64,000 nucleotides of DNA from assembly GCA_016217965.1 (NCBI GenBank), contig JACRFI010000016.1, positions 65,837 through 129,836 on the forward strand, in the 5' to 3' direction. How positions within the stretch are numbered: the first letter of the stretch is position 1; each line of letters begins with the position of its first letter. Both the position numbers and the translations under genes were made by a program. Origin of the DNA: Candidatus Kaiserbacteria bacterium (lineage in GTDB: Bacteria > Patescibacteriota > Minisyncoccia > Phycocordibacterales > UBA2100). Of the stretch, positions 1 through 11,995 are shown piece by piece. The notes beneath the pieces were generated by a model. The model was given only the letters and a program-made list of their open reading frames with translations. It was not told where the DNA came from and did not search any database.

Positions 1-1
1 T

Positions 2-898
2 GCACTTCTTGACCAGTCATTTCCTACCGAGAGATATGAGATTATCCTCCCAGATGTCTCAGGCAACCAGATGAGCGCCGCGCTCTCGGAGATGCCGGCA
101 ATGAAATCGGAGCGCCCGTCTGTTGTGCCGGGAAGGGGTGGTAATTTCAGTGAACGCATAGAGCGAGCACTGTCCATCGTCCGCGGGCAATATGTCTGCT
201 TTACTATTTCCGATTGTATTGTTCCGCACGATTGGCTTCTTTCTTTTCTTGCAGCATACAAACGGTATCCAGGCGCTGGTGGTGTTGGCGGGTATGTTCG
301 CGTCAGTCCTGAACACTACACGATATACGACGAGTTGCAGCACTATGAGTTGGCGCAGCGTTTAGGCGTGGAGCGAGAAAAGAAGTTTCTAACAAGAATA
401 TACGAGGTTTGTAATCAGGCATTTTACCAGAATCCGACAGGTGATCTCGCAAATATTTCGTACTTGAAAGAAGTAATCCCAACCGATCTTGCAGGAGCGA
501 GGAATATTTATGATCTGGAACTGCATCTTAAGATAAGCGCGATGCGAGAAAGGCCTCTAGTTTTTATTCCGAAGGCCGTGGCTCGCGATACACCATTGTC
601 CGCGAGCGAATTTCTTCGCATTGAGTTCGAGCGCGGTTTTTTGAACCGCCTAGCGCGCGAATCAATCTATGCGCTCGGGAAGTATCGTCGCCAAACACTC
701 ATGGCAGCACTTGCACAAGCGGTGCGCACGACGCTTCGATACAGAGATATGCGCTACGGGGCTCTGAGCTTTCTAGCGAGTATTGCGCGTTGGGTGGGGA
801 ATATCGGGGCGTCACACGTACGTCTGCGCCAGAGAGCACTGCGTGAATATCTTGATCGACGCCGAGAGTACGTCGTGCCAAACAGTGTGATAAAATAA
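2..898 (+). CDS. glycosyltransferase family 2-like protein, C-terminal part (5' end runs off window)
   Basis: Frame is open from nt 2 with no upstream stop. The upstream in-frame residues ...ERYEIILPDVSGNQ resemble a degenerate GT-A 'DxD' region. Remaining sequence has no stronger motif. Confidence 0.4.
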   Translation, partial: ALLDQSFPTERYEIILPDVSGNQMSAALSEMPAMKSERPSVVPGRGGNFSERIERALSIVRGQYVCFTISDCIVPHDWLLSFLAAYKRYPGAGGVGGYVRVSPEHYTIYDELQHYELAQRLGVEREKKFLTRIYEVCNQAFYQNPTGDLANISYLKEVIPTDLAGARNIYDLELHLKISAMRERPLVFIPKAVARDTPLSASEFLRIEFERGFLNRLARESIYALGKYRRQTLMAALAQAVRTTLRYRDMRYGALSFLASIARWVGNIGASHVRLRQRALREYLDRRREYVVPNSVIK

Positions 899-913
899 GA
901 GTTAGTCAAATAC

Positions 914-942
914 TTGACATATATCGCTGTGTGGGGTATTAT
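914..942 (+). promoter_or_regulatory. near-consensus sigma70 promoter (TTGACA - 17 nt - TATTAT)
   Basis: TTGACA at 914-919, a 17-nt spacer, then TATTAT at 937-942. The only in-frame start of the overlapping ORF (GTG at 931) lies inside the -10 region. Confidence 0.6.
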
Positions 943-949
943 GCGAACG

Positions 950-1385
950 ATAAAGATAATCTCCACGTTGGTTGCGAGACATTCGTACAGACTTCATGGG
1001 GTGTGTCTGGATGCCTCGTAACCGTACGGGTGTCAGGTGACACTCGGCGAGAAGTACGGGGGGAGGTTATCGGTGTGAACCGATTTACCAAGACTGCCTA
1101 CTCAGCGGGGTTTTCGTTGGGCGTTCTGGCGGGGGCCGTAACCTTGCCGTCTACTCCAGCGGAGGCGCGGTGCTGCGGAAGCACATGCCAGCAAAAGTGT
1201 AAGGATACCCATCACATTGGGGGCCATACACTCCAGGGTTGCTACAACTACTGGGGCGGGCTGTGCAAGAAGCCAGCCGCGAGCAAGCAGGCAGTAGGCT
1301 CTCGCGCTCTGAAGCCGGGCACGAGCAAGGCACGGTAACGCGTGCTGAGGGGGCTCGGTCCAACCGGGCCTCTTCGATTTTGGAA
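950..1385 (+). ncRNA. candidate structured non-coding RNA of unknown class (about 430 nt, GC-rich)
   Basis: Lies downstream of the consensus promoter. No translatable ORF follows the predicted TSS. Many GC-rich hairpins are present (e.g. GCACGGUAACGCGUGC). It ends in a 7-bp GC stem (GGCUCGG/CCGGGCC) followed by a U-rich tract (UCUUCGAUUUUGG) at about 1346-1385. The class could not be assigned by eye. Confidence 0.35.
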
Positions 1386-1392
1386 AAGCGCC

Positions 1393-2103
1393 CTATTTTA
1401 AGAATCTGTTTCCCAACACTATTACCGACACAGGTTGTTCCATCGCACTATCAACATCAAGAAGAGTGATGATCACATCATCGTTGAGAGCGCCAAGTGG
1501 GCATGTCGCTAGTGAGAGCGCTTCGCTGACAATTAGGATGTTTTGAGAGAGATGGCCGGCTTCTAGCAGTGAAAGCACATACGCAAAATCTCGATATTTT
1601 TGCGCGCTGCGATCCCATGCTGCGGTACATACAATGACTGCGGTTGGCGATGCATCGCCATTGATTTTCACGTATGAAGAAGGAGAGGCGTCATCCGGGA
1701 GTTTCCAAAGTTGACGCAATACGTGGGTGTCAGGCTCATAATGGAGCAGTATACGTTCACAATTCTCGACAGTGAAGGAGATTACATATATTTCAATAGG
1801 ATACAGACCACCCCCTGAAGGATATGGTCGTCTACCCGATCCACTTTTGTGGGCTGCATAGTAAAGGAGGGAAGATAATGCGCTGAGAGAAACAGGCGTT
1901 CCGCTAAATTCTTTGCGTGACTTGCGCTGCTCTAATGCCTCTGCAAGTGATAGCTTCAGGGGCAACGGCTCTGGCAACGGCACAACCTCCATTCGTTCAT
2001 ATCGTTTCGGTCCGTTAGTGGCGTTAGGTGGTTGAGTGAGCCGATGCTGGTTCTTTCGTATGTACTCGTGAATGCTTGGGATAAAATCGTCCATACACAT
2101 CAA
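1393..2103 (-). CDS. SagB-type (McbC-like) FMN-dependent dehydrogenase, nitroreductase fold
   Basis: Motifs RKSRKEF (nitroreductase RRSxRxF), RRPYPSGGGLYPIEIYV (SagB signature PSAGGLYP) and a C-terminal ATCPLGALND. The gene overlaps the YcaO stop by 4 nt (2100-2103). Confidence 0.8.
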   Translation of the reverse strand: MMCMDDFIPSIHEYIRKNQHRLTQPPNATNGPKRYERMEVVPLPEPLPLKLSLAEALEQRKSRKEFSGTPVSLSALSSLLYYAAHKSGSGRRPYPSGGGLYPIEIYVISFTVENCERILLHYEPDTHVLRQLWKLPDDASPSSYVKINGDASPTAVIVCTAAWDRSAQKYRDFAYVLSLLEAGHLSQNILIVSEALSLATCPLGALNDDVIITLLDVDSAMEQPVSVIVLGNRFLK

Positions 2104-3521
2104 ACGAATGGATGGGGCACGTCGGCGAACACTTCCGAACGCGCGAGATATCCAAATTGCTTCGGTATGCTATGCAAACGTTCTCCCCCTTCGCAGCGAT
2201 TTTTTTCATTGAGATAGAGAGGTTGCAATTCAGGTATGACGGCAAATACGACATAGAATCCGAGGACATTCTTTTTGGAAACCCCTAGGTCTACATACAG
2301 GCATTCATATCCTGTTCTCTGGCACCATTTTGTGATTCGCTCCAGATGTTCTGGCGCTACGTCATTTTCCCACTCTGCGTTCTCAAGCGGGGCCTCCCTT
2401 CCGCTTGTGAGGAAATCCATCATATGCGCCTTCGCAGGATCAGCCCAGTAGATATGCCTATCAGTAAATGTAATATTTTTTTCATCCCGAAGCGTTGCAT
2501 GGTTTCTGACGAGATCCCGAGCATTCTTTCGTGCACGCAGCGCTTCAAGGAGCGCTTTTTCTGCCGCATGCGAGGCAGATGCATGTGCGCTGGTCCCAAC
2601 CGAAAAAGGCGGGAGATTTGCAGAATCGCGCACAACCACCATTATGACGTGGGCAGGCGCATCCGTAATGAGACGGACGAAATGCACGCGTAAATTGTAA
2701 CGGTCGCATCTTGCTAGAAGCTCATGCAATGCAGAGTTGTTTTCTGCGATGGACGCTCTCGCTACTTGGGGAAGCGAAAGTCTATTCAGCCACATGATCA
2801 TAAACGCATCCCGCTCGATGGCTTCGAGCAGTCCCGAAAGTATCGCCTGCGTCTTATCAGGATGTGTCGCGACACCCGTCGTTATCGGCTCTCTCAGCAT
2901 AGGCTCCTTCCGATCTCGCATTGCATCGTGGGCATGGACCCGACTCACGATTTGTGCGGGTAGTAGCAGCGATTTTTTTTGCACGAGCGAGCGTCCTTTT
3001 GTCCATAGAAACTGTGTAGCCTTAGTAACGGACAGTCTCGGCACGGCGTTACGTTGGGTATTTGAGTAGCCTGCAAAGCGTAACGGATCAATAGCTTTTC
3101 CACCCCCGAGTTGATCGAATGTTGAACAAGCCGTCCCCCGGAAGTAATCGTGCTCGTGTCTCCATATATGGCGCTCCTGCGCTTCCGAGACGGCAGCTCG
3201 TAATGCCTCTTTGTCGCTCCTGACAGAGAGACCGCCCGCCTTTTCACCGCCCATATCCACCCACCAGGACCGCATAGGTGGCTCATCGGGGAAAGCATGA
3301 GCGGTCCCAAAGGCGGTTGCAATGTTCGCATCGGCAAGTTTCCGATAGTTGCGCAGCACGTCTTTTAGGTCAGGTCGCGACAATCCGTTTCTTCTGGCAT
3401 CTTTAACTGCTGAGAGGCCAGCTGCAGCCGCGATGTGAGTTGCAAACAAGCGGACGCCTCTTTCCGAAATCGTCCATTCTTCATCGTGTTTCGTAGCCGT
3501 CGGGATCAAAAAATAGCCCAT
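2100..3521 (-). CDS. YcaO-domain protein (azoline-forming cyclodehydratase, TOMM D-protein type)
   Basis: YcaO hallmark segments ITTGVATHPDKTQAILSGLLEAIERDAFMIMW and GTSAHASASHAAEKALLEALRARKNA. There is an N-terminal region of about 200 aa whose function is not recognisable. Confidence 0.85.
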   Translation of the reverse strand: MGYFLIPTATKHDEEWTISERGVRLFATHIAAAAGLSAVKDARRNGLSRPDLKDVLRNYRKLADANIATAFGTAHAFPDEPPMRSWWVDMGGEKAGGLSVRSDKEALRAAVSEAQERHIWRHEHDYFRGTACSTFDQLGGGKAIDPLRFAGYSNTQRNAVPRLSVTKATQFLWTKGRSLVQKKSLLLPAQIVSRVHAHDAMRDRKEPMLREPITTGVATHPDKTQAILSGLLEAIERDAFMIMWLNRLSLPQVARASIAENNSALHELLARCDRYNLRVHFVRLITDAPAHVIMVVVRDSANLPPFSVGTSAHASASHAAEKALLEALRARKNARDLVRNHATLRDEKNITFTDRHIYWADPAKAHMMDFLTSGREAPLENAEWENDVAPEHLERITKWCQRTGYECLYVDLGVSKKNVLGFYVVFAVIPELQPLYLNEKNRCEGGERLHSIPKQFGYLARSEVFADVPHPFV

Positions 3522-3605
3522 GCACGCATACTATCACGCAGGGTATGAGGGTTATGCACATGACCCTATTAGACACTATGCGAGCGCGCAATTATCATTT
3601 GCAGT

Positions 3606-3992
3606 ATGGTAGTAAAGATGCGCGGGCATACCCTTCGAGGGATTGGTTTTGTTCGAACGGTCGGATTGTTTTTACTTGGCGCTTTTGTCGTTTTTCTCGC
3701 AATAGTATTTCCAAGGTGGTTTGGTGCTGGGTCTACACACGGTCTTTCGGGTACTGGTATCGCGCTTGCCGATGCACCGAGTTGCTCTGGCGGCGGAGGT
3801 TGCGGGGGAGACGGCAACTGCAGCGGTTGTAGTACTTGCAGCGGTTGCACTGGAGATAGCTGCGGCAATGGCTGCGGTGGTGATGGATGTAGTTGTAGTG
3901 GCGATTGTGGTTGTGGCAATGGTAACGGAGGTGGCGATGGTGATGGTGGGGACGGAGGAGGAGGAGGAGATTCTTCGGCTTGTGGAAGCTGA
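3606..3992 (+). CDS. candidate TOMM (microcin B17-like) precursor peptide: hydrophobic leader plus Gly/Ser/Cys/Asp-rich core
   Basis: 128 aa; the alternative start is the ATG at 3618. Residues 1-45 are a basic, then 20-aa hydrophobic stretch (VGLFLLGAFVVFLAIVFP). The C-terminal 68 aa is CSGGGGCGGDGNCSGCSTCSGCTGDSCGNGCGGDGCSCSGDCGCGNG...DSSACGS, with 14 Cys almost all flanked by Gly/Ser. It is divergent from the YcaO-SagB pair across an 84-nt spacer. Confidence 0.5.
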   Translation: MVVKMRGHTLRGIGFVRTVGLFLLGAFVVFLAIVFPRWFGAGSTHGLSGTGIALADAPSCSGGGGCGGDGNCSGCSTCSGCTGDSCGNGCGGDGCSCSGDCGCGNGNGGGDGDGGDGGGGGDSSACGS

Positions 3993-4010
3993 TGCAAAAA
4001 AATAGCGAAC

Positions 4011-5147
4011 ATGCTCTCAAACAGCAATTTGCGTACGTTTCTTGTTGCAATGGTCGTGAGTGTAATGGCGATTCTGGGAATTTTTTACTGGTGGCTTGGT
4101 ATTAAAGTAAACAATGATGCAGCTCAAGAAGTCAACCTTGTTATCGAAGGCGTACGACCAATAAGTATTTACAACCACACAGGGGACAACGCATATATCG
4201 TTAATGACCTTTCTGCAGCAGTGATTTCCGTTTTGGAATACTATGGTGCAAATTTGTCGCAAAGCAATCTCAAAAAGATAAATGGCAGATTTTGGGACGA
4301 CAGTAATCCAAGCGCTTTGCACCAGCTGGAAGACGTCAAGCTTCTCACGGAAGAACTTGGCTACAGTGCAACGATTGAAGTCGCGGAATCCATCGCAGAT
4401 TTCAAGAAATATTTCTCAGGTATACCAACACCTGTCATTTTCTCGCATTTCATTGAGATCGACCAAAATCCGGAGATTCAATTCAAGCCTATGGGAGTTC
4501 TCATCGGCATGTTGGATAGTGAGCAATCTGTCATTATTCACGACTATTATTTTGGCTACAACAAGAAACTCTCGTATTGGCAATTTGCGAGGCTTGGTGC
4601 ATACCCTGCGCAAGTTTTGGTGATTAAGCCGAAAATCCCGAGGGTCGGTGCACCTGATGCAAGCGAGGAATACGTGCGAACGGAATCGATGGATAAGGCA
4701 GAACCGATCATAAATAAGATAACACTTGGGCGTGTAGCACAGGCGCAGCAAAAATATAGGATCGCCGCAAGTTACTATAGCGCTGCGTTAAAGCACCCCG
4801 ACCGGGATATAGTACCTCCGTATTACAAAGTAGTCGCGCTCAACGGCGGTGTTGGCAGTTATATACGGCTCGATGGTGATTATGATTCAGCATACGAGCT
4901 CGCGAAATTGGGGGAGGAGTTCAATCAAAATCTAGACGAGCCCTATGGGGATTATTGGCCGGGATTTGTCGACGGCACTAACCTCATTACAGATCAGTTC
5001 GCCGGTATATACTACTGGCTCGGTAGGATATATGAACACAAGGGTGATGTAGCGCAGGCTAAGGCGAATTACGAACACGCGCTTGAAATATATCCATATG
5101 GACCGTCTATTGATGCGCTTGAACGCATCAAAACTGAGAGCGAGTGA
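4011..5147 (+). CDS. membrane-anchored protein with peptidase-C39-like (papain-fold) domain and C-terminal TPR
   Basis: N-terminal TM helix. The segment NDLSAAVISVLEYYGANLSQSNLKK aligns by eye to the C39 motif DCGxAxLxMxxxYYGxxxSLxEL, but the nucleophile Cys position is not Cys. A later PVIFSHF/IIHD His region follows. The C-terminus has a TPR-like repeat (YYWLGRIYEHKGDVAQAKANYEHALEIYP). Confidence 0.45.
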   Translation: MLSNSNLRTFLVAMVVSVMAILGIFYWWLGIKVNNDAAQEVNLVIEGVRPISIYNHTGDNAYIVNDLSAAVISVLEYYGANLSQSNLKKINGRFWDDSNPSALHQLEDVKLLTEELGYSATIEVAESIADFKKYFSGIPTPVIFSHFIEIDQNPEIQFKPMGVLIGMLDSEQSVIIHDYYFGYNKKLSYWQFARLGAYPAQVLVIKPKIPRVGAPDASEEYVRTESMDKAEPIINKITLGRVAQAQQKYRIAASYYSAALKHPDRDIVPPYYKVVALNGGVGSYIRLDGDYDSAYELAKLGEEFNQNLDEPYGDYWPGFVDGTNLITDQFAGIYYWLGRIYEHKGDVAQAKANYEHALEIYPYGPSIDALERIKTESE

Positions 5148-5941
5148 TGTTTACAAATCGAAGAGTGTTTGTCGTAGGAAGTTTCTCGTTATTTCTTTTG
5201 GCAGCGTTGCTGGGTAGGCAACAAGTACAAGCCATCGGCGAGACCGCATTATTCCTCGTTTCTCCGACGGCAGAGCGTGCGTATGAGTATGGTGCGCGGC
5301 ATTTTGATGCAATTCATGCACGGGATTACGACATGGATCGCGCTGTATTTTTTTTCAAGGAGGCCGAGAAAATCGATGCCGATTATCCGTATCTCCAACA
5401 TCAGCTCGCAAGAATTTCGTTTCTAAAAGGAGATTTTGCAAATGCTCTCCGCCGAATTGATCGTGAAATAGAGAATAATCCATCCCCCTCGCTGTCTTCC
5501 TTTTATGTACGAGGACTTGTGAAAGGATTCGCCGGCGATTACCTTGGTGCGATACCTGATTATCAGAAGTTCCTGGAATCTGAACCCGCGAATTGGGCTG
5601 CTTCCAATGATCTCGCGTGGGTATATTTGAAGGCGAATCGTCCGAGTGAAGCGCTTGTGGCGATTGACGCAGCGTTATCAGCGAACATAGGTAATCCATG
5701 GCTCCTCAACAGCAGGGCGACGGCGCTGTTCGAACTGGGCCGCCTTGAAGAAGCGCGTGATGCAGCCCGGCTTTCCTTGTATGCGGTCAAGGGAATAACA
5801 AAAGAAGACTGGCTCAAAGCATACCCCGGCAATGATCCTCTTATCGCGCCAGAAGGCATGCATGCGTTCCAATCGGCTGTTCTTGCGAATATGCACAGTA
5901 TTCTTATTGCGATGGAGAAGGAGCAGAAAGGTGTGAGATAA
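5144..5941 (+). CDS. TPR-repeat protein with N-terminal signal/anchor
   Basis: N-terminal hydrophobic segment, several TPR-like repeats, and a 4-nt overlap with the upstream gene. Confidence 0.5.
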   Translation: MMFTNRRVFVVGSFSLFLLAALLGRQQVQAIGETALFLVSPTAERAYEYGARHFDAIHARDYDMDRAVFFFKEAEKIDADYPYLQHQLARISFLKGDFANALRRIDREIENNPSPSLSSFYVRGLVKGFAGDYLGAIPDYQKFLESEPANWAASNDLAWVYLKANRPSEALVAIDAALSANIGNPWLLNSRATALFELGRLEEARDAARLSLYAVKGITKEDWLKAYPGNDPLIAPEGMHAFQSAVLANMHSILIAMEKEQKGVR

Positions 5942-5953
5942 TCCTCTTATCTT

Positions 5954-6646
5954 ATGGCTCATAACGAGGGACAGCGTCGTTGGCGGCTATTTTCAGCTCG
6001 AGAGATATTGCTTTTGGGAGCATTCGTTATTGTGCTTGCCGCCGCATATCAGTTTGACGGAGCGAGGCTTCCTATCACGTCAGCGGAAACGCAATTTGTG
6101 GAGCGTTCGGCATCTGGCCTGCAGATTGTGCCAGCCTCGTGTCCCTCGAACCCGCATGGCGGGCAATCATGCTATTCGCAAAGTTATTATCAAGGCTACT
6201 ACCAATCGTATTATCAAGGCTACTACCAATCTTCATACTGCACGACGCAGTATCAGTGCTCGGGCGATTCGAAGCGCGTCATCGACAGCTGTAATCCTGC
6301 GGGGACGATACTAACCTGCTCTTCGTCGCAGACATGTGTCAACGCGAGCTGCGTATCCATAGATGCTTCTCTCACGGTTGTTCCCAACCTGCTCCGTTCG
6401 GGAGAAACGACCCAGGTAACGTGGAAAGGCACGAATGTGTCGTCGTGCACGGTCACCGAAGATAACCCAGGATTCACGGATTCGTGGAGCTGTAACTCTG
6501 TTGCCTCGTGCACCGCAAACCATACAAATACATCGAGTCCCATCGACGCGGAGACAAAATACACGTTGACGTGTACCGCGCCTAGTGGCTCAACAATCAT
6601 AAAGACAGCGACTGTTCGCATCATCCCGGTGTGGATCGAGGAATGA
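5954..6646 (+). CDS. membrane-anchored Cys-rich protein with tandem YYQ(G/S) repeats
   Basis: N-terminal TM helix. The repeat is SYYQGYYQSYYQGYYQSSY, visible in DNA as ctactaccaatcgtattatcaaggctactaccaatc. 15 Cys are scattered through a Ser/Thr-rich ectodomain. Confidence 0.5.
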   Translation: MAHNEGQRRWRLFSAREILLLGAFVIVLAAAYQFDGARLPITSAETQFVERSASGLQIVPASCPSNPHGGQSCYSQSYYQGYYQSYYQGYYQSSYCTTQYQCSGDSKRVIDSCNPAGTILTCSSSQTCVNASCVSIDASLTVVPNLLRSGETTQVTWKGTNVSSCTVTEDNPGFTDSWSCNSVASCTANHTNTSSPIDAETKYTLTCTAPSGSTIIKTATVRIIPVWIEE

Positions 6647-6662
6647 TGGTACACTGATTTAC

Positions 6663-7076
6663 ATGAAAGCTATCGCTGTCGCATATCTCGGAATATTCAT
6701 TGCCTTCACAGCGATGCCGGCCGTTACATCCGCGCAGGAGATGTATCAGGACGATTCATCAGTTCTTCGCTCTGAAATACGTCTCGCGCTTCTTGCAGAC
6801 GCCCGTTCCAGCGAACTTACCGATGAGGAAGTTGCAATGCTCGTTGAGTCACTTGCGGGGGAGGCGGAGGCACAGGGAATAGCGCAAGAATTTCTGCCCG
6901 AGCGGGCACAAACCATGCGGGCAGACGCAATTGCTAATTGGTGGGAAAACCTCTCGGAGCCTATGCTTTACGGGATAGTGCTCGTTGCGCTCGCGCTCGC
7001 GATGGTCCTCATGAAGCGCATCATTGATTCGCACCACCACGCTGCCCGCCCGCCGGATACGCCCGCAGCTGTGTAG
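6663..7076 (+). CDS. small secreted/membrane protein (signal peptide plus C-terminal TM)
   Basis: Signal-like N-terminus MKAIAVAYLGIFIAFTAMPAVTSAQE, a C-terminal hydrophobic helix and a His-rich tail. Confidence 0.4.
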   Translation: MKAIAVAYLGIFIAFTAMPAVTSAQEMYQDDSSVLRSEIRLALLADARSSELTDEEVAMLVESLAGEAEAQGIAQEFLPERAQTMRADAIANWWENLSEPMLYGIVLVALALAMVLMKRIIDSHHHAARPPDTPAAV

Positions 7077-7104
7077 TTGCGTATTGGAACCCTCTCCTAT
7101 ATAG
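7077..7104 (+). promoter_or_regulatory. possible promoter of the r-protein operon (TTGCGT ... TATATAG)
   Basis: A -35-like TTGCGT and a -10-like TATATA/ATATAG 15-16 nt downstream, about 90 nt upstream of rplC. Confidence 0.3.
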
Positions 7105-7194
7105 TACTCGCACCTCGAAAGAGGCATCCCAAGTCCCCATACGGGACCACTGGCTCGGAAATAGGTCCGCGCTAGCTGCGCGGATAAACTATAT

Positions 7195-7803
7195 ATGGCA
7201 ACAAAGTTCATGCTCGGCACAAAAGGCCGAATGACACAGGTTTTCGATGAGAGCGGCGCAGTCCATGCGGCGACCATCATTACTGCCGGACCCCTCACTA
7301 TTACCCAGGCAAAGACCGCAGAAAAAGACGGATACGAGGCGTCGCAGGTCGGTTTCGGCGAACGAAAAGAAAAGAATCTTTCAAAAGCAGTGAAAGGGCA
7401 TTTCAAGGAGCTCGGTAATTTCCGATATGCTAAGGAATTCCCCATCTCTGGTGAAAGGGGAACAAAGATTGACGTGTCCGTGTTCGTGCCGGGGGATGCT
7501 GTCACAGTCTCTGCCATCTCGAAGGGCAAAGGGTTTCAGGGCGTGGTGAAGCGCCACGGATTCCACGGAGGCCCGAGGAGCCATGGCCAGAAGAACAAGG
7601 AGAGGGCGCCGGGTTCTATCGGCGGCGGAGGCCGTGCGGGCGGACGAGTCGTCAAGGGAATGCGCATGGCAGGAAGGATGGGGGGAGAGCGCGTAACGGT
7701 GCGGAACCTTCGCGTCTTGCAAGTGGACACGAGTTCGAATACGCTCGTCATTTCCGGCGCAGTACCGGGAAAGCCGGGAACGCTTGTCGAAATACGCGGT
7801 TAA
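7195..7803 (+). CDS. rplC: 50S ribosomal protein L3
   Basis: MATKFMLGTKGRMTQVFDESG... with a typical L3 N-terminus and a Gly-rich loop. Confidence 0.95.
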   Translation: MATKFMLGTKGRMTQVFDESGAVHAATIITAGPLTITQAKTAEKDGYEASQVGFGERKEKNLSKAVKGHFKELGNFRYAKEFPISGERGTKIDVSVFVPGDAVTVSAISKGKGFQGVVKRHGFHGGPRSHGQKNKERAPGSIGGGGRAGGRVVKGMRMAGRMGGERVTVRNLRVLQVDTSSNTLVISGAVPGKPGTLVEIRG

Positions 7804-7937
7804 ATTCGAAATCCGAATATCGAAATCTGAAAAAATATGAAATCAAAAATTAAAAATCAGAAAAGTTTGAAGTTTAGAATTTTTCCAAGTTGTGCTTTTT
7901 CGAATTTCGTGCTTCGTGCTTCGAATTTTTAAAACAT

Positions 7938-8687
7938 ATGGAATCACCAATTTACAACACAGCAGGCAAAAAAACGGGAACAATTGCGCTTCCTGAGAGT
8001 ATTTTTGCCGTCAAATGGAACGACTCTTTGATGTATCAGGTCGTTACCGCCATGCAAGCGAATGCACGCACGCCCGTTGCCCATGTGAAAACAAGGGGGG
8101 ATGTGAGGGGCGGCGGCAAGAAGCCATGGGCGCAAAAAGGAACCGGCCGCGCTCGGCACGGCTCTATCCGCTCGCCCATCTGGCGAGGCGGGGGAGTGAC
8201 GCATGGCCCTAGGAGCGACAAATCATATGCGCGCACGATACCAAAAAAAATGCGCATTAAGGCTCTCACGATGGCACTTTCCCAAAAGTTCAAGGACGGT
8301 GGGGTCGTGTTCATAGATTCTCTTGGCCTCGAGGAGCCGAAAACCGCTGCTGCGAAAAAAGTGCTTGTTTCTGTCAGCGGTGCACTTGGCCTCAAGGGTC
8401 TTGTGGAAAAGAAGGCAAATGCAGCGTTTGTCGCGCTTGCCGATCCTCGCGAATCGGCGACAAAAAGTTTTCGGAATCTCGGCAATATCGAGTGCAAAGC
8501 AGTGCGAGAGCTTAACCCGGTCTCTGTGCTCAAGCATTCGTATCTCATCATTGAAAATCCGGAAGCAGCGCTCGCAATTCTTTCCCACCGTATCGGAGAA
8601 AAGGTTGAAACGACGACGCCACGAGCCAAAAAGCCGAAGAAAGTCAATATGAAGGCCGTGCACGCTGCCGAAAAAGGAGACCAGTAA
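7938..8687 (+). CDS. rplD: 50S ribosomal protein L4
   Basis: MESPIYNTAGKKTGTIALPESIF...RGGGKKPWAQKGTGRAR. The start was moved to the internal ATG at 7938. The C-terminus has a basic extension. Confidence 0.9.
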   Translation: MESPIYNTAGKKTGTIALPESIFAVKWNDSLMYQVVTAMQANARTPVAHVKTRGDVRGGGKKPWAQKGTGRARHGSIRSPIWRGGGVTHGPRSDKSYARTIPKKMRIKALTMALSQKFKDGGVVFIDSLGLEEPKTAAAKKVLVSVSGALGLKGLVEKKANAAFVALADPRESATKSFRNLGNIECKAVRELNPVSVLKHSYLIIENPEAALAILSHRIGEKVETTTPRAKKPKKVNMKAVHAAEKGDQ

Positions 8688-8727
8688 TTGAATTCAAATT
8701 TGAAATTTTAAATTTAAAATTCAGCAT

Positions 8728-9102
8728 ATGGCACTATTTTCAAGAAAAAAGAATAAAGAGGTTGAGGCAACAACGGCGCCAGCGCCTGTCAGCACCCGCG
8801 TGGAGCCGAAAACAACTGTCGCCGACCTCTCACATGTCCTCATGAATCCGCGCATTACTGAAAAAGCGACGATGGCCTCGGCAGAGGGCGTGTATGTTTT
8901 TGATGTCGCGGAGCGTGCAAACAAAAAAGATATTGCACGCGCGGTCGCGCAGTACTACAAAGTAATTCCGCGAAAGATATCGGTTGTGACTATTCCTGCG
9001 AAATCGACACGAAGCACGAGGACGGGAGTGCGAGGTGTCAAACAGGGAGGCAAGAAAGCCTATGTGTATCTTAAGAGGGGAGAAACGATAACCATTGCAT
9101 AA
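8728..9102 (+). CDS. rplW: 50S ribosomal protein L23 with N-terminal extension
   Basis: ...LMNPRITEKATMASAEGVYVFDVAERANKKDIARAVAQYYKV... Confidence 0.9.
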   Translation: MALFSRKKNKEVEATTAPAPVSTRVEPKTTVADLSHVLMNPRITEKATMASAEGVYVFDVAERANKKDIARAVAQYYKVIPRKISVVTIPAKSTRSTRTGVRGVKQGGKKAYVYLKRGETITIA

Positions 9103-9105
9103 CAT

Positions 9106-9954
9106 ATGAGCATGAAATTTTACAAACCAACGACAGCGGGCCAGCGAGGCATGAGCCGGGTCAATTTTCGCGCTGCCCTCTCTGGAAAAGGGCGAGCGAA
9201 ATTCCTCACAGAAGGAGGAAAGCGCGCAGTCGGAAGAAACGCGTTTGGCCGCATCACGACGAGGCACAAGGGTGGAGGGCACAAACGCGTGTGGCGCGAT
9301 GTGGATTTCCAACTCAATAAGAAGAACATCCCTGCGCGCATCGCCACGATCGAATACGACCCAAATCGCTCCGCGTTCATCGGGCTTGCTATCTACAAGG
9401 ACGGAGAGAGGCGGTATGTGGTAGTTCCTAAAAATATGAACGTTGGAGACACATTTCTCGTCTCTACTGATGCTCCTATTGCGCCGGGGAATCGGCTTCC
9501 TCTTGCGAATATCCCCGTTGGCACATTCGTATTCAATATAGAGCTCTCTCCAGGCGGAGGCGGCAAAATTGCAAGGAGTGCGGGCAACTTCGCGGAGGTT
9601 GTTGCGCAAGACGCGGGATACACACACCTCAAAATGCCTTCGACAGAAGTTCGTCGCGTCATCGGAACTGCGTGGGCAACTGTGGGCGAAGCATCAAATG
9701 ATGAACATCGTTTGCAAGTCATCGGAAAGGCTGGCCGCACGCGTTGGATGGGCGTCCGCCCGACGGTTCGAGGCTCCGCAATGAATCCTGTGGACCATCC
9801 ACACGGAGGAGGTGAAGGAAAACAAGGGAGAGGCCTCCGTCGAGCTAAATCTTTGTGGGGCAGGCCAACAGGGAAGGGACAGAAGACCCGCCGCCCGAAG
9901 AAATACTCAAACGTATTTATCGTTTCTCGCCGCCGTGTAGGTAAGCGAAAATAG
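9106..9954 (+). CDS. rplB: 50S ribosomal protein L2
   Basis: MSMKFYKPTTAGQRGMSRVNF...GGGEGKQGRG, the L2 signature. Confidence 0.95.
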   Translation: MSMKFYKPTTAGQRGMSRVNFRAALSGKGRAKFLTEGGKRAVGRNAFGRITTRHKGGGHKRVWRDVDFQLNKKNIPARIATIEYDPNRSAFIGLAIYKDGERRYVVVPKNMNVGDTFLVSTDAPIAPGNRLPLANIPVGTFVFNIELSPGGGGKIARSAGNFAEVVAQDAGYTHLKMPSTEVRRVIGTAWATVGEASNDEHRLQVIGKAGRTRWMGVRPTVRGSAMNPVDHPHGGGEGKQGRGLRRAKSLWGRPTGKGQKTRRPKKYSNVFIVSRRRVGKRK

Positions 9955-9979
9955 TTCGGTTAAAAGCTAATTTATTGAC

Positions 9980-10045
9980 TCAAAGCGTTTTCTTCGCTAC
10001 ATTGTCGCTACCCGCTCCGGCGGGATTTAGTTTGGTTGGATTTTC
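9980..10045 (+). promoter_or_regulatory. intra-operon spacer with promoter-like (TTGACT-17-TACATT) and terminator-like hairpin (CCCGCuccgGCGGG plus U-tract)
   Basis: The 126-nt rplB-rpsS spacer holds a hairpin at 10011-10024 followed by AUUUAGUUUGGUUGGAUUUU. Confidence 0.35.
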
Positions 10046-10080
10046 CTATCACCTAGAACCTAGTTCCTAGAACCTACTTT

Positions 10081-10431
10081 ATGGCACGTTCAGTAAAAAA
10101 AGGCCCCTACGTGGATGCCAAATTGATGAAGAAAGTCGGGAACCGCAAACCAACAGCGGGAGGCATTAAGACGTGGGCAAGGGCCAGCCAAATACCGCCT
10201 GAATTTGTCGGCTTCACATTCCTTGTGCACACGGGCAAAAATTTCGACGAGGTTTTCATAACTGAAGACATGGTCGGGCATCGCCTCGGTGAATTTGCTC
10301 CGACGACGAAATTCATCCGCCACGGAGGCAAGATGCAGAAGGAGATCGAGATGAAAGCAAAAGAAGCCGAGATAGCAGCCGCGACGGCTGCGAAGGCAAC
10401 GGGAGATGCCGCAAAGACGGCGAAGAAATAG
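10081..10431 (+). CDS. rpsS: 30S ribosomal protein S19 with Ala/Lys-rich C-terminal extension
   Basis: [12 protein letters not shown]...[27 protein letters not shown]...[12 protein letters not shown]. Confidence 0.9.
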
Positions 10432-10524
10432 TATGAAGTCACAAGTCATCAGTCATAAGTCAACAGAGAATACTGAAACGCAAAAGTGCGATGCATTTGG
10501 CTTTGGACTCATGACTTCAAACTA
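10432..10524 (+). repeat. about 90-nt spacer element, copy 1 (AGTCACAAGTCAT[C/A]AGTCATAAGTCA ... TTTGGACT[C/A]ATGACTT), internally dyad-symmetric
   Basis: Shares two conserved blocks with the rpsZ-rpsH spacer at 14118-14227. AAGTCAT and ATGACTT form an inverted repeat. Confidence 0.6.
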
Positions 10525-10878
10525 ATGACTATCCGTATGAAAGCCTCGCTCTCAAATTTCCGCCAATCTCCGCAAAAGGTTCGTCTTGTGGCGAATGCCA
10601 TCCGCGGGAAGAAAGTTGCAGTAGCGCGGCGAGCGCTCTCGTTCTTGCCGAAGAAATCATCCCCAATGTTCCAGAAGCTCTTGGATTCTGCAGTTGCGAA
10701 CGCGAAGGGGATGGATGTAAATACGGACGAGCTCATCATCAAAAGCGTCTCTGTTGATAAGGGATTGGTGATACGTCGTTACAAGCCGATGGCGCGCGGC
10801 CGTGCAGCAGGTGTCAGAAAGACTCGCAGCATGGTATCCATAGTGCTAGGTCTGCCAGAGGACCCAAAAAGAAAATAA
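10525..10878 (+). CDS. rplV: 50S ribosomal protein L22
   Basis: MTIRMKASLSNFRQSPQKVRLVANAIRGKKVAVA.... The start was chosen at the internal ATG; the ORF-track start would overlap the repeat element. Confidence 0.85.
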   Translation: MTIRMKASLSNFRQSPQKVRLVANAIRGKKVAVARRALSFLPKKSSPMFQKLLDSAVANAKGMDVNTDELIIKSVSVDKGLVIRRYKPMARGRAAGVRKTRSMVSIVLGLPEDPKRK

Positions 10879-10879
10879 T

Positions 10880-11566
10880 ATGACACACGTTGTACATCCA
10901 TATGCGCATCGCCTCGGCATCATCAGGGATTGGAAGTCCCGTTGGTTCGCTGCAACTCCTGCGCAGTATCGCGACCAGGTTATGGTCGACGCTGCCATAA
11001 GGCGTTTCCTTAAAAAGCGGCTGCGCGGACACTACGTCACTTCCATCGAAATAGAGCGAAATCAGAAGATGATACGGGTTCTCATCAAAACATCTCGCCC
11101 AGGTTTCATCATTGGCCGTGGTGGTGAAGGTAGCGCGAAGTTGACGAAAGAAATAGAACAAGTTGTGCGAAAAGTTGTCCCGCCAGCAGGAGCGAAAAAG
11201 CCTGTTGCGATGCCGGTGAGGCTTGATATAGAAGAAGTACGTTCTCCCGAATCACAGGCGCCCGTTGTTGGATACATGATCGCGGAAGGCCTTGAGAAGC
11301 GGCAACCATTCAGGCGCGTCTTGAAGCAGACGGTTGAAAAAGTAATGGCGAACAGAGACGTTGAAGGTGTACGCATCGCCATTTCCGGCAGGCTTGGCGG
11401 CGCAGAAATGTCGCGTGCAGAAGAGATAAAGAGGGGACGCGTACCGCTACAGACTCTTCGCGCTGATATAGATTTTGCGCGCGAAGAAGCATACCTTCCG
11501 TACGGTGTGATCGGCATCAAAGTCTGGATATATCGGGGGGAAATATTCGCCGAAGGCAAGAAATAA
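10880..11566 (+). CDS. rpsC: 30S ribosomal protein S3
   Basis: MTHVVHPYAHRLGIIRDWKSRWFA... with KH and S3-C domains. Confidence 0.95.
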   Translation: MTHVVHPYAHRLGIIRDWKSRWFAATPAQYRDQVMVDAAIRRFLKKRLRGHYVTSIEIERNQKMIRVLIKTSRPGFIIGRGGEGSAKLTKEIEQVVRKVVPPAGAKKPVAMPVRLDIEEVRSPESQAPVVGYMIAEGLEKRQPFRRVLKQTVEKVMANRDVEGVRIAISGRLGGAEMSRAEEIKRGRVPLQTLRADIDFAREEAYLPYGVIGIKVWIYRGEIFAEGKK

Positions 11567-11572
11567 ACTCGT

Positions 11573-11995
11573 ATGCTTAGCCCGAAAAAAGCAAAATACC
11601 GGAAGTGGCAAATGGGCCGCAAGAACCCAAGTCGCCTTAACGCGCCCGAGACGCGCGGCATTACTGTTGCGTTCGGTTCGTTCGGTTTTAAAGCGACGAC
11701 GCAAGCGCGCGTGACATCGAATCAGCTTGAAGCAGCGCGCCGCGCTCTCACGCGAGCCGCAGGCAAAACTGCGAAGATCTGGACCCGCGTTTTTCCTGAC
11801 AGGCCGTTCACACAAAAGGCGGCTGAAGTCGGCATGGGAAGCGGCAAAGGCGATGTGCAGGGGTACGTTGTAGAGGTGCGTCCCGGCCGCGTCATCTTCG
11901 AAGTTGACGGGGCCTCAGAAGAGATTGCTCGTGAGGCGCTTCGCAAGGCAGGTACGAAGCTTCCACTGAAAGGAAAAGTTGTAGCTCGCGCATAG
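11573..11995 (+). CDS. rplP: 50S ribosomal protein L16
   Basis: MLSPKKAKYRKWQMGRK... Confidence 0.95.
   Translation: MLSPKKAKYRKWQMGRKNPSRLNAPETRGITVAFGSFGFKATTQARVTSNQLEAARRALTRAAGKTAKIWTRVFPDRPFTQKAAEVGMGSGKGDVQGYVVEVRPGRVIFEVDGASEEIAREALRKAGTKLPLKGKVVARA

Follow-up and report, generated by a model that had tools for sequence, protein, structure and literature searches.

The 64,000-nucleotide stretch of the Candidatus Kaiserbacteria contig JACRFI010000016.1 analysed here (positions 65,837 to 129,836; hereafter the window) contains, at positions 4011-5147 of its forward strand, an open reading frame (ORF) for a 378-residue protein that almost certainly carries a catalytically dead C39-type peptidase domain. 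The N-terminal domain of the protein is a papain fold of C39/C70 "double-glycine peptidase" descent that has lost both the catalytic cysteine and the catalytic histidine, and it is tethered to the membrane at one end and fused to tetratricopeptide repeats (TPRs) at the other. The gene follows that of a precursor-like peptide, for which its product may serve as a receptor or chaperone. The protein matches P0001 ('tetratricopeptide repeat protein [Candidatus Kaiserbacteria bacterium]') with 100 % identity, and its gene is laid out as follows, with the genuine double-glycine peptidase P0152 as the reference for catalytic positions.

4011-5147, + strand: C39-like pseudo-peptidase-TPR protein, 378 residues (ORF call)
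4029-4100, + strand: N-terminal transmembrane (TM) helix or signal anchor, residues ~7-30 (AlphaFold2 (AF2) helix 4-31 and hydropathy)
4128-4640, + strand: papain-fold domain of C39/C70 type, catalytically degenerate, residues ~40-210 (hhalign, profile searches and Foldseek)
4206-4208, + strand: codon of Asp66, at the catalytic-Cys position of C39 peptidases (alignment to C22 of P0152)
4488-4490, + strand: codon of Pro160, at the catalytic-His position (alignment to H112 of P0152 and to the AvrRpt2 His)
4539-4544, + strand: codons of His177-Asp178, of which D178 is the kept third triad residue (alignment to (N/H)127-D128 of genuine C39 peptidases)
4683-5144, + strand: TPR-type helical repeat domain, residues ~225-378 (Pfam TPR models, AF2 helices and Foldseek)

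A papain-fold domain that has lost its catalytic cysteine and histidine

The relationship of the N-terminal domain to C39 peptidases is visible at the family level only, as shown by the contrast between searches with the single sequence and those with its relatives. On its own, the 378-residue protein has no Pfam or NCBIfam peptidase match, with nothing even at E <= 10 for PF03412, PF13529, or PF12385, and searches of the PDB with single-sequence phmmer or with a three-sequence profile return TPR proteins only and no peptidase. A word-indexed homologue search gave just three proteins, and it was an exhaustive search of cluster representatives, using a profile of the three closest N-terminal domains, that revealed the family. 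It found 149 representatives with E <= 1e-3, including 67 with E <= 1e-10, and almost all are 350-420 residues long and have the same order of TM helix, N-terminal domain, and TPRs. The family therefore comprises at least 149 sequence clusters. Members with a named source come from Kaiserbacteria, the Parcubacteria group, Moraniibacteriota, and the "Patescibacteria group", and from one bin that carries the label Bdellovibrionales; apart from that bin, all named sources are Patescibacteria of the candidate phyla radiation (CPR). Among 124 relatives, PF13529 (Peptidase_C39_2) is matched by 26 (best E 5.3e-7), PF12385 (Peptidase_C70) by 22, and PF03412 (Peptidase_C39) by 7.

Profiles built from the family carry this homology further. 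Among proteins of solved structure, a 37-sequence profile matches the effector protease AvrRpt2 best (6hqz, E 2.7e-4), and from 5.8 billion sequences it retrieves P0152 (E 2.3e-8), which itself matches PF13529 with an E-value of 1.7e-12. In profile-profile alignment with hhalign, the 37-sequence profile and P0152 are related with 98.0 % probability, and the 149 relatives and 109 genuine C39 peptidases with 98.65 % probability (E 4.6e-16, 124 columns); the runs together span 98.0-98.7 % and E-values of 1.7e-13 to 4.6e-16. An earlier note, made by reading the letters of the window, had proposed a C39-like domain without its catalytic cysteine and had named profile similarity to the C39 or papain fold, set beforehand, as the decisive evidence. 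That similarity is found, both with hhalign (98.7 %) and among the papain folds retrieved by Foldseek. The register that the note had set by eye, NDLSAAVISVLEYYG against DCGxAxLxMILKYYG, is exactly the register of the profile-profile alignments and, at 98.0-98.7 %, not a product of chance.

Structure prediction, which the note had suggested as a check together with mapping of the catalytic residues, leads to the same fold. With a deep alignment, AF2 gives a model with a predicted local distance difference test score (pLDDT) of 94.4 and a predicted TM-score (pTM) of 0.88; an earlier run from three sequences (pLDDT 56) was set aside. Foldseek searches of the PDB with this model find papain-like folds in AvrRpt2 (6hqz, 6.5e-4), the phytochelatin synthase Alr0975 (1.5e-3), and HlyB (8dck_A, 2.1e-3), with further matches to PeiR and staphopain; the entries matched include 2bu3 and 1y4h. 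Asp66, Pro160, and D178 were assigned to the catalytic positions by alignment. The TM-scores of the papain-like matches are modest, and this, together with the lack of any Pfam match at E <= 10 and the restriction of the phmmer hits to TPR proteins, counts against the assignment: it is what would be seen if the C39 likeness were spurious and the domain had an unrelated alpha/beta fold. We regard such an explanation as extremely improbable, and it is largely refuted by the tests that were run. Searches with profile hidden Markov models (HMMs) against sequences, profile-profile alignments, the Pfam matches of relatives, and the fold search independently concur, and the alignment passes in the correct order through the conserved start of the helix, the central strand, and the HD hairpin.

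The remainder of the protein agrees with the architecture that the earlier note had described. Its membrane anchor corresponds to the hydrophobic helix at the N terminus, where the highest-scoring 19-residue hydropathy window reaches 2.31. Its TPR fusion is confirmed by Pfam matches to TPR_2 at residues 332-362 (E 1.3e-7, 31.6 bits against a cutoff of 27), TPR_8 (28.8 bits against a cutoff of 25.7), TPR_16 at residues 238-294, and TPR_12, and by helical repeats at residues 225-377 of the AF2 model. Foldseek ranks highest some TPR domains whose ligands are acidic C-terminal peptides, a generic resemblance. Pfam detects no ATP-binding cassette (ABC) domains in the protein, and the architecture is one TM helix, the N-terminal domain, and the TPRs. 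Residues ~305-330 (window 4920-5010) form a long non-helical stretch between two AF2 helices, with a sequence, LNxDLDxPxGDxWPG, that is kept across the family. The conserved sequence corresponds to no TPR or peptidase motif and may mark a functional site.

The alignments also establish what has become of the catalytic triad. The nucleophile of P0152, C22, pairs with Asp66 in both hhalign alignments, H112 pairs with Pro160, in agreement with the alignment to AvrRpt2, and D128 pairs with D178. In the genuine C39 peptidases, Gln17, Cys22, His112, and Asp128 are each present in 108-109 of 109 sequences, with Cys, His, and Asp invariant (109/109). Among the 149 relatives, by comparison, the Cys column holds Asp in 52, Ser in 37, Asn in 12, Pro in 9, Ala in 8, Glu in 7, Thr in 6, and Gly in 5, and Cys in none. 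The His column is mostly Pro (63) or Gly (21), followed by Ser (10), Val (9), and Thr (9), and the Asp column remains Asp in 101, with Ser in 20 and Asn in 15. Because Asp66 replaces the cysteine and Pro160 the histidine, the domain cannot act as a cysteine protease, and judged by these columns the whole family is predicted to consist of pseudo-peptidases. Two details of the earlier note are corrected by this mapping. It had placed Leu or Ser at the nucleophile position, which is Asp66 rather than Leu67 or Ser68, and it had taken a downstream histidine to be retained, whereas the position of the catalytic histidine is Pro160. Of the two histidines nearby, H146 is His in just 11 of 149 relatives. 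H177 is His in 130 of 149, but it precedes the catalytic Asp, at a position where genuine C39 peptidases have either Asn or His; it is not the catalytic histidine and is probably structural.

The near-invariant residues of the family are, in full, Y77, P141, G166, H177, G182, and P207. Only Y77, which pairs with the Tyr of the YW motif of P0152, and H177 are polar, so that no replacement catalytic set stands out. The region of the oxyanion-hole Gln falls outside the hhalign alignment; by eye, N55 of a YNH sequence could match it, with an insertion of ~7 residues between. A cysteine within six residues of the Cys column occurs in only 4 of the 149 members. Stray cysteines were considered as nucleophiles (P0031, P0040, P0099, and P0128) and rejected, as they are ~3 residues out of register and have no paired histidine.

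Linkage to a precursor-like gene

The neighbourhood of the C39-like gene, in which the earlier note had pointed out an adjoining precursor-like gene and an overlapping downstream TPR gene, holds both of these and a pair of peptide-modifying enzymes on the other strand.

1393-2103, - strand: SagB-type flavin mononucleotide dehydrogenase, 236 residues (TIGR03605, 112.6 bits against a cutoff of 78.4; PF00881)
2100-3521, - strand: YcaO cyclodehydratase of SagD type, 473 residues, divergent (PF02624, E 1.4e-47, 163 bits)
3606-3992, + strand: precursor-like gene, 128 residues (K/R-rich N terminus, TM helix, A-L-A↓D-A-P junction, tail; ↓ marks the junction)
5144-5941, + strand: partner TPR protein, 265 residues, with a signal-peptide-like N terminus (TPR_19, E 2.8e-15)
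5954-6646, + strand: membrane-anchored Cys/Tyr/Ser-rich protein, 230 residues (homologues in the related loci L001, L002, and L010; no Pfam family)
6663-7076, + strand: small protein, 137 residues, signal peptide and C-terminal TM helix (L001 and L002 have homologues)

The precursor-like ORF ends 18 nt before the C39-like gene. Its junction, A55↓D56 (nt 3768-3773), is followed by a tail of 73 residues (3771-3989) with 31 Gly, 13 Cys, 11 Ser, and 9 Asp. ORFs of the same type occur in related loci, among them L001 (7711-7968), L002 (7695-7964), L003 (7773-7997), L004 (1548-1802), and L006 (7576-7848). An [A/V/T/S]-x-A↓[D/Q] junction with a variable residue at position -2 is present in 17 of 17 non-redundant precursors, 44-59 residues from the N terminus, and its -3/-1 pattern is that of type-I signal peptidase sites. 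The precursors share a K/R-rich start, often M-x-I-I-K-K, with 3-5 K/R ahead of the TM helix; a linker of 20-30 residues, in many of them with the sequence (V/I)NLxxLExxxKxx(L/F); and a Gly/Asp/Ser/Cys-rich tail of 18-73 residues that often ends in G-x-Y/F.

The tails vary in ways that bear on their chemistry. The closest relatives of the window, L001, L002, and L003, have Cys-free Gly/Asp-rich tails with few Ser/Thr, and they keep YcaO, with SagB undetected in the flanks searched. The window combines a 13-Cys tail with SagB, and L016 and L020 combine SagB with Cys-free tails, making the correlation between Cys and SagB imperfect. On Cys-free tails, YcaO could form oxazolines, modify the backbone, or do nothing. 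In L008 (5838-6656) and L012 (132-1004), the tail is directly followed, at the C terminus, by a Hint/intein-like domain (PF05203, E 2.2e-10; PF14890) that begins with Cys and ends with VHN, which suggests self-cleavage or transfer at the C terminus of the tail. In L010 (5836-6711) there is a different C-terminal domain, also with Cys as its first residue.

We collected 33 related loci, searched them with the proteins of the window and the family HMM, and merged duplicates. These loci are largely metagenomic fragments and form a modest sample. Linkage to the precursor was scored on the non-redundant loci with at least 250 nt of upstream sequence (n=23), and in 22 of these a precursor-like ORF lies immediately upstream of the C39-like gene. 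YcaO, whose co-occurrence in related genomes the earlier note had proposed to examine, is found at most 8 kb away in 14 of the 16 loci with sufficient upstream sequence, with SagB adjoining it in 8 of those. YcaO occurs on either strand and at a variable distance from the C39-like gene yet remains linked to it, which argues for selection on the linkage. In L023 and L032 there is no YcaO, yet the pair of precursor and C39-like genes is kept. L032 has two radical S-adenosylmethionine (SAM)/SPASM-like ORFs instead, with no YcaO in 7.4 kb upstream, and radical-SAM/SPASM, methyltransferase, and other tailoring-type ORFs are present in further loci. Therefore, the tightest and most general link is that between the pseudo-peptidase and the precursor, and not that with YcaO. 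Radical-SAM/SPASM-like ORFs with a CxxxCxxC motif were noted in L032 (2773-4952), L029 (5090-6193), L015 (2219-3106), and L020 (3-806).

The C39-like gene is translationally coupled to the second TPR gene. The GTG start of the latter at 5144 overlaps the TGA stop (5145-5147) of ORF 4011-5147 by 4 nt (GTGA); with the alternative in-frame ATG at 5147 the overlap is 1 nt (GTGATG junction). A homologue of this TPR partner lies downstream of the C39-like gene in most loci. Four loci contain two tandem C39-like-TPR paralogues (L007 333-2747, L008 6687-9089, L021 206-2620, and L029 6646-9101), and in these a longer TPR partner of 400-450 residues follows.

The constant presence of a junction that needs some protease, in an operon that encodes no other dedicated one, raises the question of whether the domain could still be a hydrolase that cuts at AxA↓D with a non-canonical set of residues, such as Asp/Ser66 with His177/Asp178 or Asn55/His56. 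H177 and D178 are conserved, and in 89 of 149 relatives Asp or Ser occupies the Cys column. However, the same column also accepts Asn, Pro, Ala, Glu, Thr, and Gly, Pro or Gly predominates in the His column, none of the near-invariant residues is of nucleophile type, and H177 occupies the probably structural Asn/His position next to the catalytic Asp. Moreover, the -3/-1 pattern of the junction suits type-I signal peptidase and not the GG/GA sites of C39 enzymes. We therefore consider residual hydrolase activity improbable. An active C39 peptidase as a regular member of the cluster was also considered and rejected, as the sole candidate is in L015, with no homologue in other loci. This candidate (L015 3461-4117) is a secreted protein beside SagB/YcaO with, by eye, active C39_2 motifs (…GSGC…, …HFVVIVG…, and …ADPW…), which have no Pfam confirmation. 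It may be the missing protease of that locus.

The gene linkage also bears on the idea that the protein is a general scaffold of the CPR envelope or cell surface, for example in surface-polymer or pilus assembly, and that YcaO and the precursor merely share its neighbourhood. TPR proteins are commonly generic scaffolds, and in the three closest genomes the cluster lies amid envelope-related genes, including those for glycerophosphotransferase/GT2 and CTP-transferase proteins, inside the S10 region. But the order of precursor and C39-like gene is kept between relatives with 20-30 % identity and in otherwise different neighbourhoods, YcaO switches strand and position without losing its linkage, and the upstream partner is always the same peculiar type of peptide. 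A generic scaffold is accordingly hardly a probable account of the family.

The genes around this core were surveyed in the window and in its closest relatives. The YcaO protein also matches TIGR03604 (E 1.8e-64, 218 bits, just below the cutoff of 219.25), and its gene is overlapped at the end by the SagB gene for 4 nt. The 137-residue protein is encoded by the last gene before rplC (7195), after which come the rest of the S10/spc ribosomal genes. In L001, a cluster of ~11 kb (632-11870) lies between rpsJ and rplC, so that the normally contiguous S10 ribosomal operon is split. It contains genes for sulfotransferase-like, methyltransferase, CTP-transferase, glycerophosphotransferase/GT2, YcaO, precursor, C39-like, and TPR proteins and for two envelope proteins, and the same cluster in the window (1-7195) stops just ahead of rplC. 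The first ORF of the window (71-898) is the C-terminal part of a protein of ~700 residues with glycerophosphotransferase and GT2 parts, cut by the window start, and has full-length counterparts in L001 (3831-5933) and L002 (3735-5816). Between the glycosyltransferase and YcaO there is a small Cys-rich ORF (window 931-1338, L001 5962-6261, L002 5921-6190). It is poorly conserved among the three, has an N-terminal hydrophobic segment in L001 and L002, and could encode a second substrate or an unrelated secreted protein. Promoter and terminator predictions in 3400-7300 were no more numerous than in shuffled sequence and were not used.

Membrane topology and proposed function

The side of the membrane on which the domain resides determines which roles are open to it. 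We favour a location of the C39-like domain, the TPR partner, and the precursor tail on the outer face of the membrane, as suggested by several sequence features. Of 131 members in which the N-terminal TM helix is clear, compared for the charges that flank it, 86 have more K/R on its N-terminal side, 20 have more on its C-terminal side, and 25 are tied. The precursors have K/R ahead of their own TM helix and the -3/-1 pattern at their junction. The TPR partner (…LLGRQQVQA↓IGE) and the 137-residue protein (…AVTSA↓QE) have signal-peptide-like N termini, and the N-terminal domains are nearly Cys-free, with a mean of 0.16 Cys per domain.

As it is encoded next to the precursor of a putatively modified peptide, the dead peptidase domain most likely binds this peptide rather than cutting it. 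We therefore favour, with moderate confidence, a role of the 378-residue protein as a non-catalytic receptor or chaperone for the precursor, likely on the outer face of the membrane and together with the TPR partner. That the gene is almost always adjacent to the precursor gene, even where radical-SAM enzymes replace YcaO, lends some weight to the leader-binding or export-scaffold role suggested in the earlier note. In the proposed process, the precursor, the secreted TPR partner, and the peptide-modifying enzymes, here YcaO and SagB, would be produced as a set. Enzymes in the cytoplasm would modify the tail of the precursor, and the signal anchor would then put the precursor into the membrane with the tail outside. 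There, the ancestral substrate cleft of the dead domain could grip the leader and junction region or the unfolded Gly/Asp-rich tail, with the TPR domains providing extra peptide binding. Finally, a different enzyme would cut at AxA↓D, signal peptidase I being the obvious candidate, and the product would be released or displayed.

Several observations weigh against this proposal. The junction is ~20-30 residues past the TM helix, farther than normal signal-peptidase sites, and the positive-inside bias of the family is modest, with a mean of 2.4 K/R on the N-terminal side and 1.6 on the other. YcaO, SagB, and radical-SAM enzymes are cytoplasmic, so a tail on the outside requires export after modification. 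Furthermore, in one of the 23 loci, L019, the ORF expected directly upstream, that of the precursor, is missing.

Some of these points would be accommodated if the domain instead faced the cytoplasm and served as a leader-recognition adaptor, substituting for a recognition element of peptides made by ribosomes and modified after translation (RiPPs), known as an RRE, or for an E1-like protein, and holding the tethered precursor for the YcaO/SagB or radical-SAM maturases. The modifying enzymes all need cytoplasmic cofactors, and about one third of the members, the 20 with C-terminal bias and the 25 that are tied, do not show the N-in charge bias. The linker motif found in many precursors could be a recognition sequence. 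In addition, the nine ORFs of the window between 71 and 7076 have no Pfam or NCBIfam match to an E1-like, Ocin-ThiF-type, or RRE partner, with the limit that no dedicated RRE search was made. Nevertheless, we consider this arrangement rather unlikely. The charge bias is N-in and domain-out in 86 members versus 20, 3-5 K/R precede the TM helix of the precursor, and the co-translated TPR partner and downstream proteins have signal-peptide-like N termini. The pair of precursor and C39-like genes is also kept whether the accompanying enzymes are of the YcaO or the radical-SAM class, and radical-SAM maturases of SPASM type often have a recognition element of their own.

Returning to a receptor on the outer face, the variety of precursors and enzymes allows a broader and more tentative picture of a widespread pathway in CPR/Patescibacteria. 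In such a pathway a Sec-type signal anchor would replace the soluble leader, and tails would be modified by YcaO/SagB or by radical-SAM enzymes, with some precursors carrying a self-cleaving Hint domain. The peptides would be exported to a receptor made of the dead C39 domain and TPRs, which might present AxA↓D to signal peptidase or keep the peptide on the surface. If true, RiPP maturation guided by a pseudo-enzyme at the surface of episymbiotic bacteria would represent a new type.

Comparison with known systems

The exporter HlyB's C39-like domain (CLD) offers, by analogy, the closest functional precedent for the proposed role. This domain (PDB 3ZUA, Lecher et al. 2012) is reported to lack the cysteine and to tether the unfolded substrate without cutting it (PMC6363468, PMC8277102), and it keeps the histidine in a flipped orientation (PMC8277102). 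The cleft of active C39 peptidases binds the leader helix and the residues that precede the scissile bond (PMC6363468). The domain described here resembles the HlyB CLD in its C39-derived fold, the absence of the nucleophile cysteine, its association with the membrane, and the Gly/Asp-rich tails of its putative cargo. In contrast, it is fused to a single TM helix and TPRs rather than to the transmembrane and nucleotide-binding domains of an ABC transporter, and Pfam finds no ABC-transporter family among the scanned ORFs of the window (71-7076) or of selected related loci. Since it stands outside any ABC exporter, it does not strictly count as a CLD. It is probably extracytoplasmic, unlike the cytoplasmic CLD, and its presumed cargo is a small, signal-anchored, YcaO-linked peptide instead of a large toxin. 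Its histidine is replaced, mostly by Pro or Gly, and judging from the aligned residues the family is more degenerate than the HlyB CLD, which retains this residue.

The C39 and C39_2 leader peptidases (PF03412 and PF13529; ComA-PEP, PCAT1, and LahT150) share the fold and the association with RiPP-type precursors. The register of helix alpha1 (xxAAVxSxLxYW) and the HD-x-x-x-G hairpin are also kept. However, the Cys and His of the triad are gone in all 149 relatives, and since these residues define the active C39/C39_2 families, the proteins are not members of them. They further differ in the insertion of ~7 residues, which lies between the VPY strand and the helix, in the AxA↓D junction of the precursor in place of GG/GA, and in the lack of a fused transporter. 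The C70 peptidases of AvrRpt2 type (PF12385; 6hqz) are among the best fold matches and the best profile match of known structure, but AvrRpt2, a secreted effector, is active and has the full Cys-His-Asp triad, of which the Cys is absent here and the His replaced by Pro. The PA2778 family (NCBIfam NF033920) has a C39-type domain followed by TPRs, as here, but its members are treated as active peptidases, as the NCBIfam name indicates. NF033920 has no match in ORF 4011-5147 at E <= 1, and the neighbouring TPR gene touches the TPR end of the model with an E-value of 0.067.

At the level of the cluster, the SagD-type YcaO, SagB, and a Cys/Ser/Gly-rich core beside the enzymes recall the thiazole/oxazole-modified microcin (TOMM), or linear azol(in)e, clusters, with a product chemistry that is predicted from the genes. 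Unlike in TOMM clusters, the precursor has an N-terminal TM signal anchor and an AxA↓D junction, and the scanned ORFs show no Pfam or NCBIfam match to an E1-like partner. Cys-free tails without a nearby SagB, radical-SAM enzymes instead, or precursors that end in Hint domains are found in some relatives.

CPR bacteria are usually thought to be poor in secondary metabolism, and the genes described here flag a family of modified-peptide clusters in these organisms. Present annotation calls the proteins no more than "tetratricopeptide repeat protein" or "hypothetical", which recognition of the C39 homology would improve, and no NCBIfam model covers either the C39-like-TPR family or the precursors. 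The pair of precursor and pseudo-peptidase provides a handle with which to mine such clusters whatever the modifying enzyme, and the pseudo-peptidase is a concrete candidate for the recognition of signal-anchor "leader" peptides during or after modification by YcaO or radical-SAM enzymes. A full-text literature search, with poor coverage of subscription journals, found no paper on a system of C39-like-TPR protein and precursor.

To our knowledge, non-catalytic C39-like domains have so far been known mainly as the N-terminal domain of ABC exporters of RTX toxins. Non-catalytic C39-like domains as such are thus known, and what is new is one with a different architecture, type of partner, and lineage: here the loss of catalysis is found in a free-standing single-pass TPR fusion, in ~150 CPR clusters, and tied to one type of precursor.

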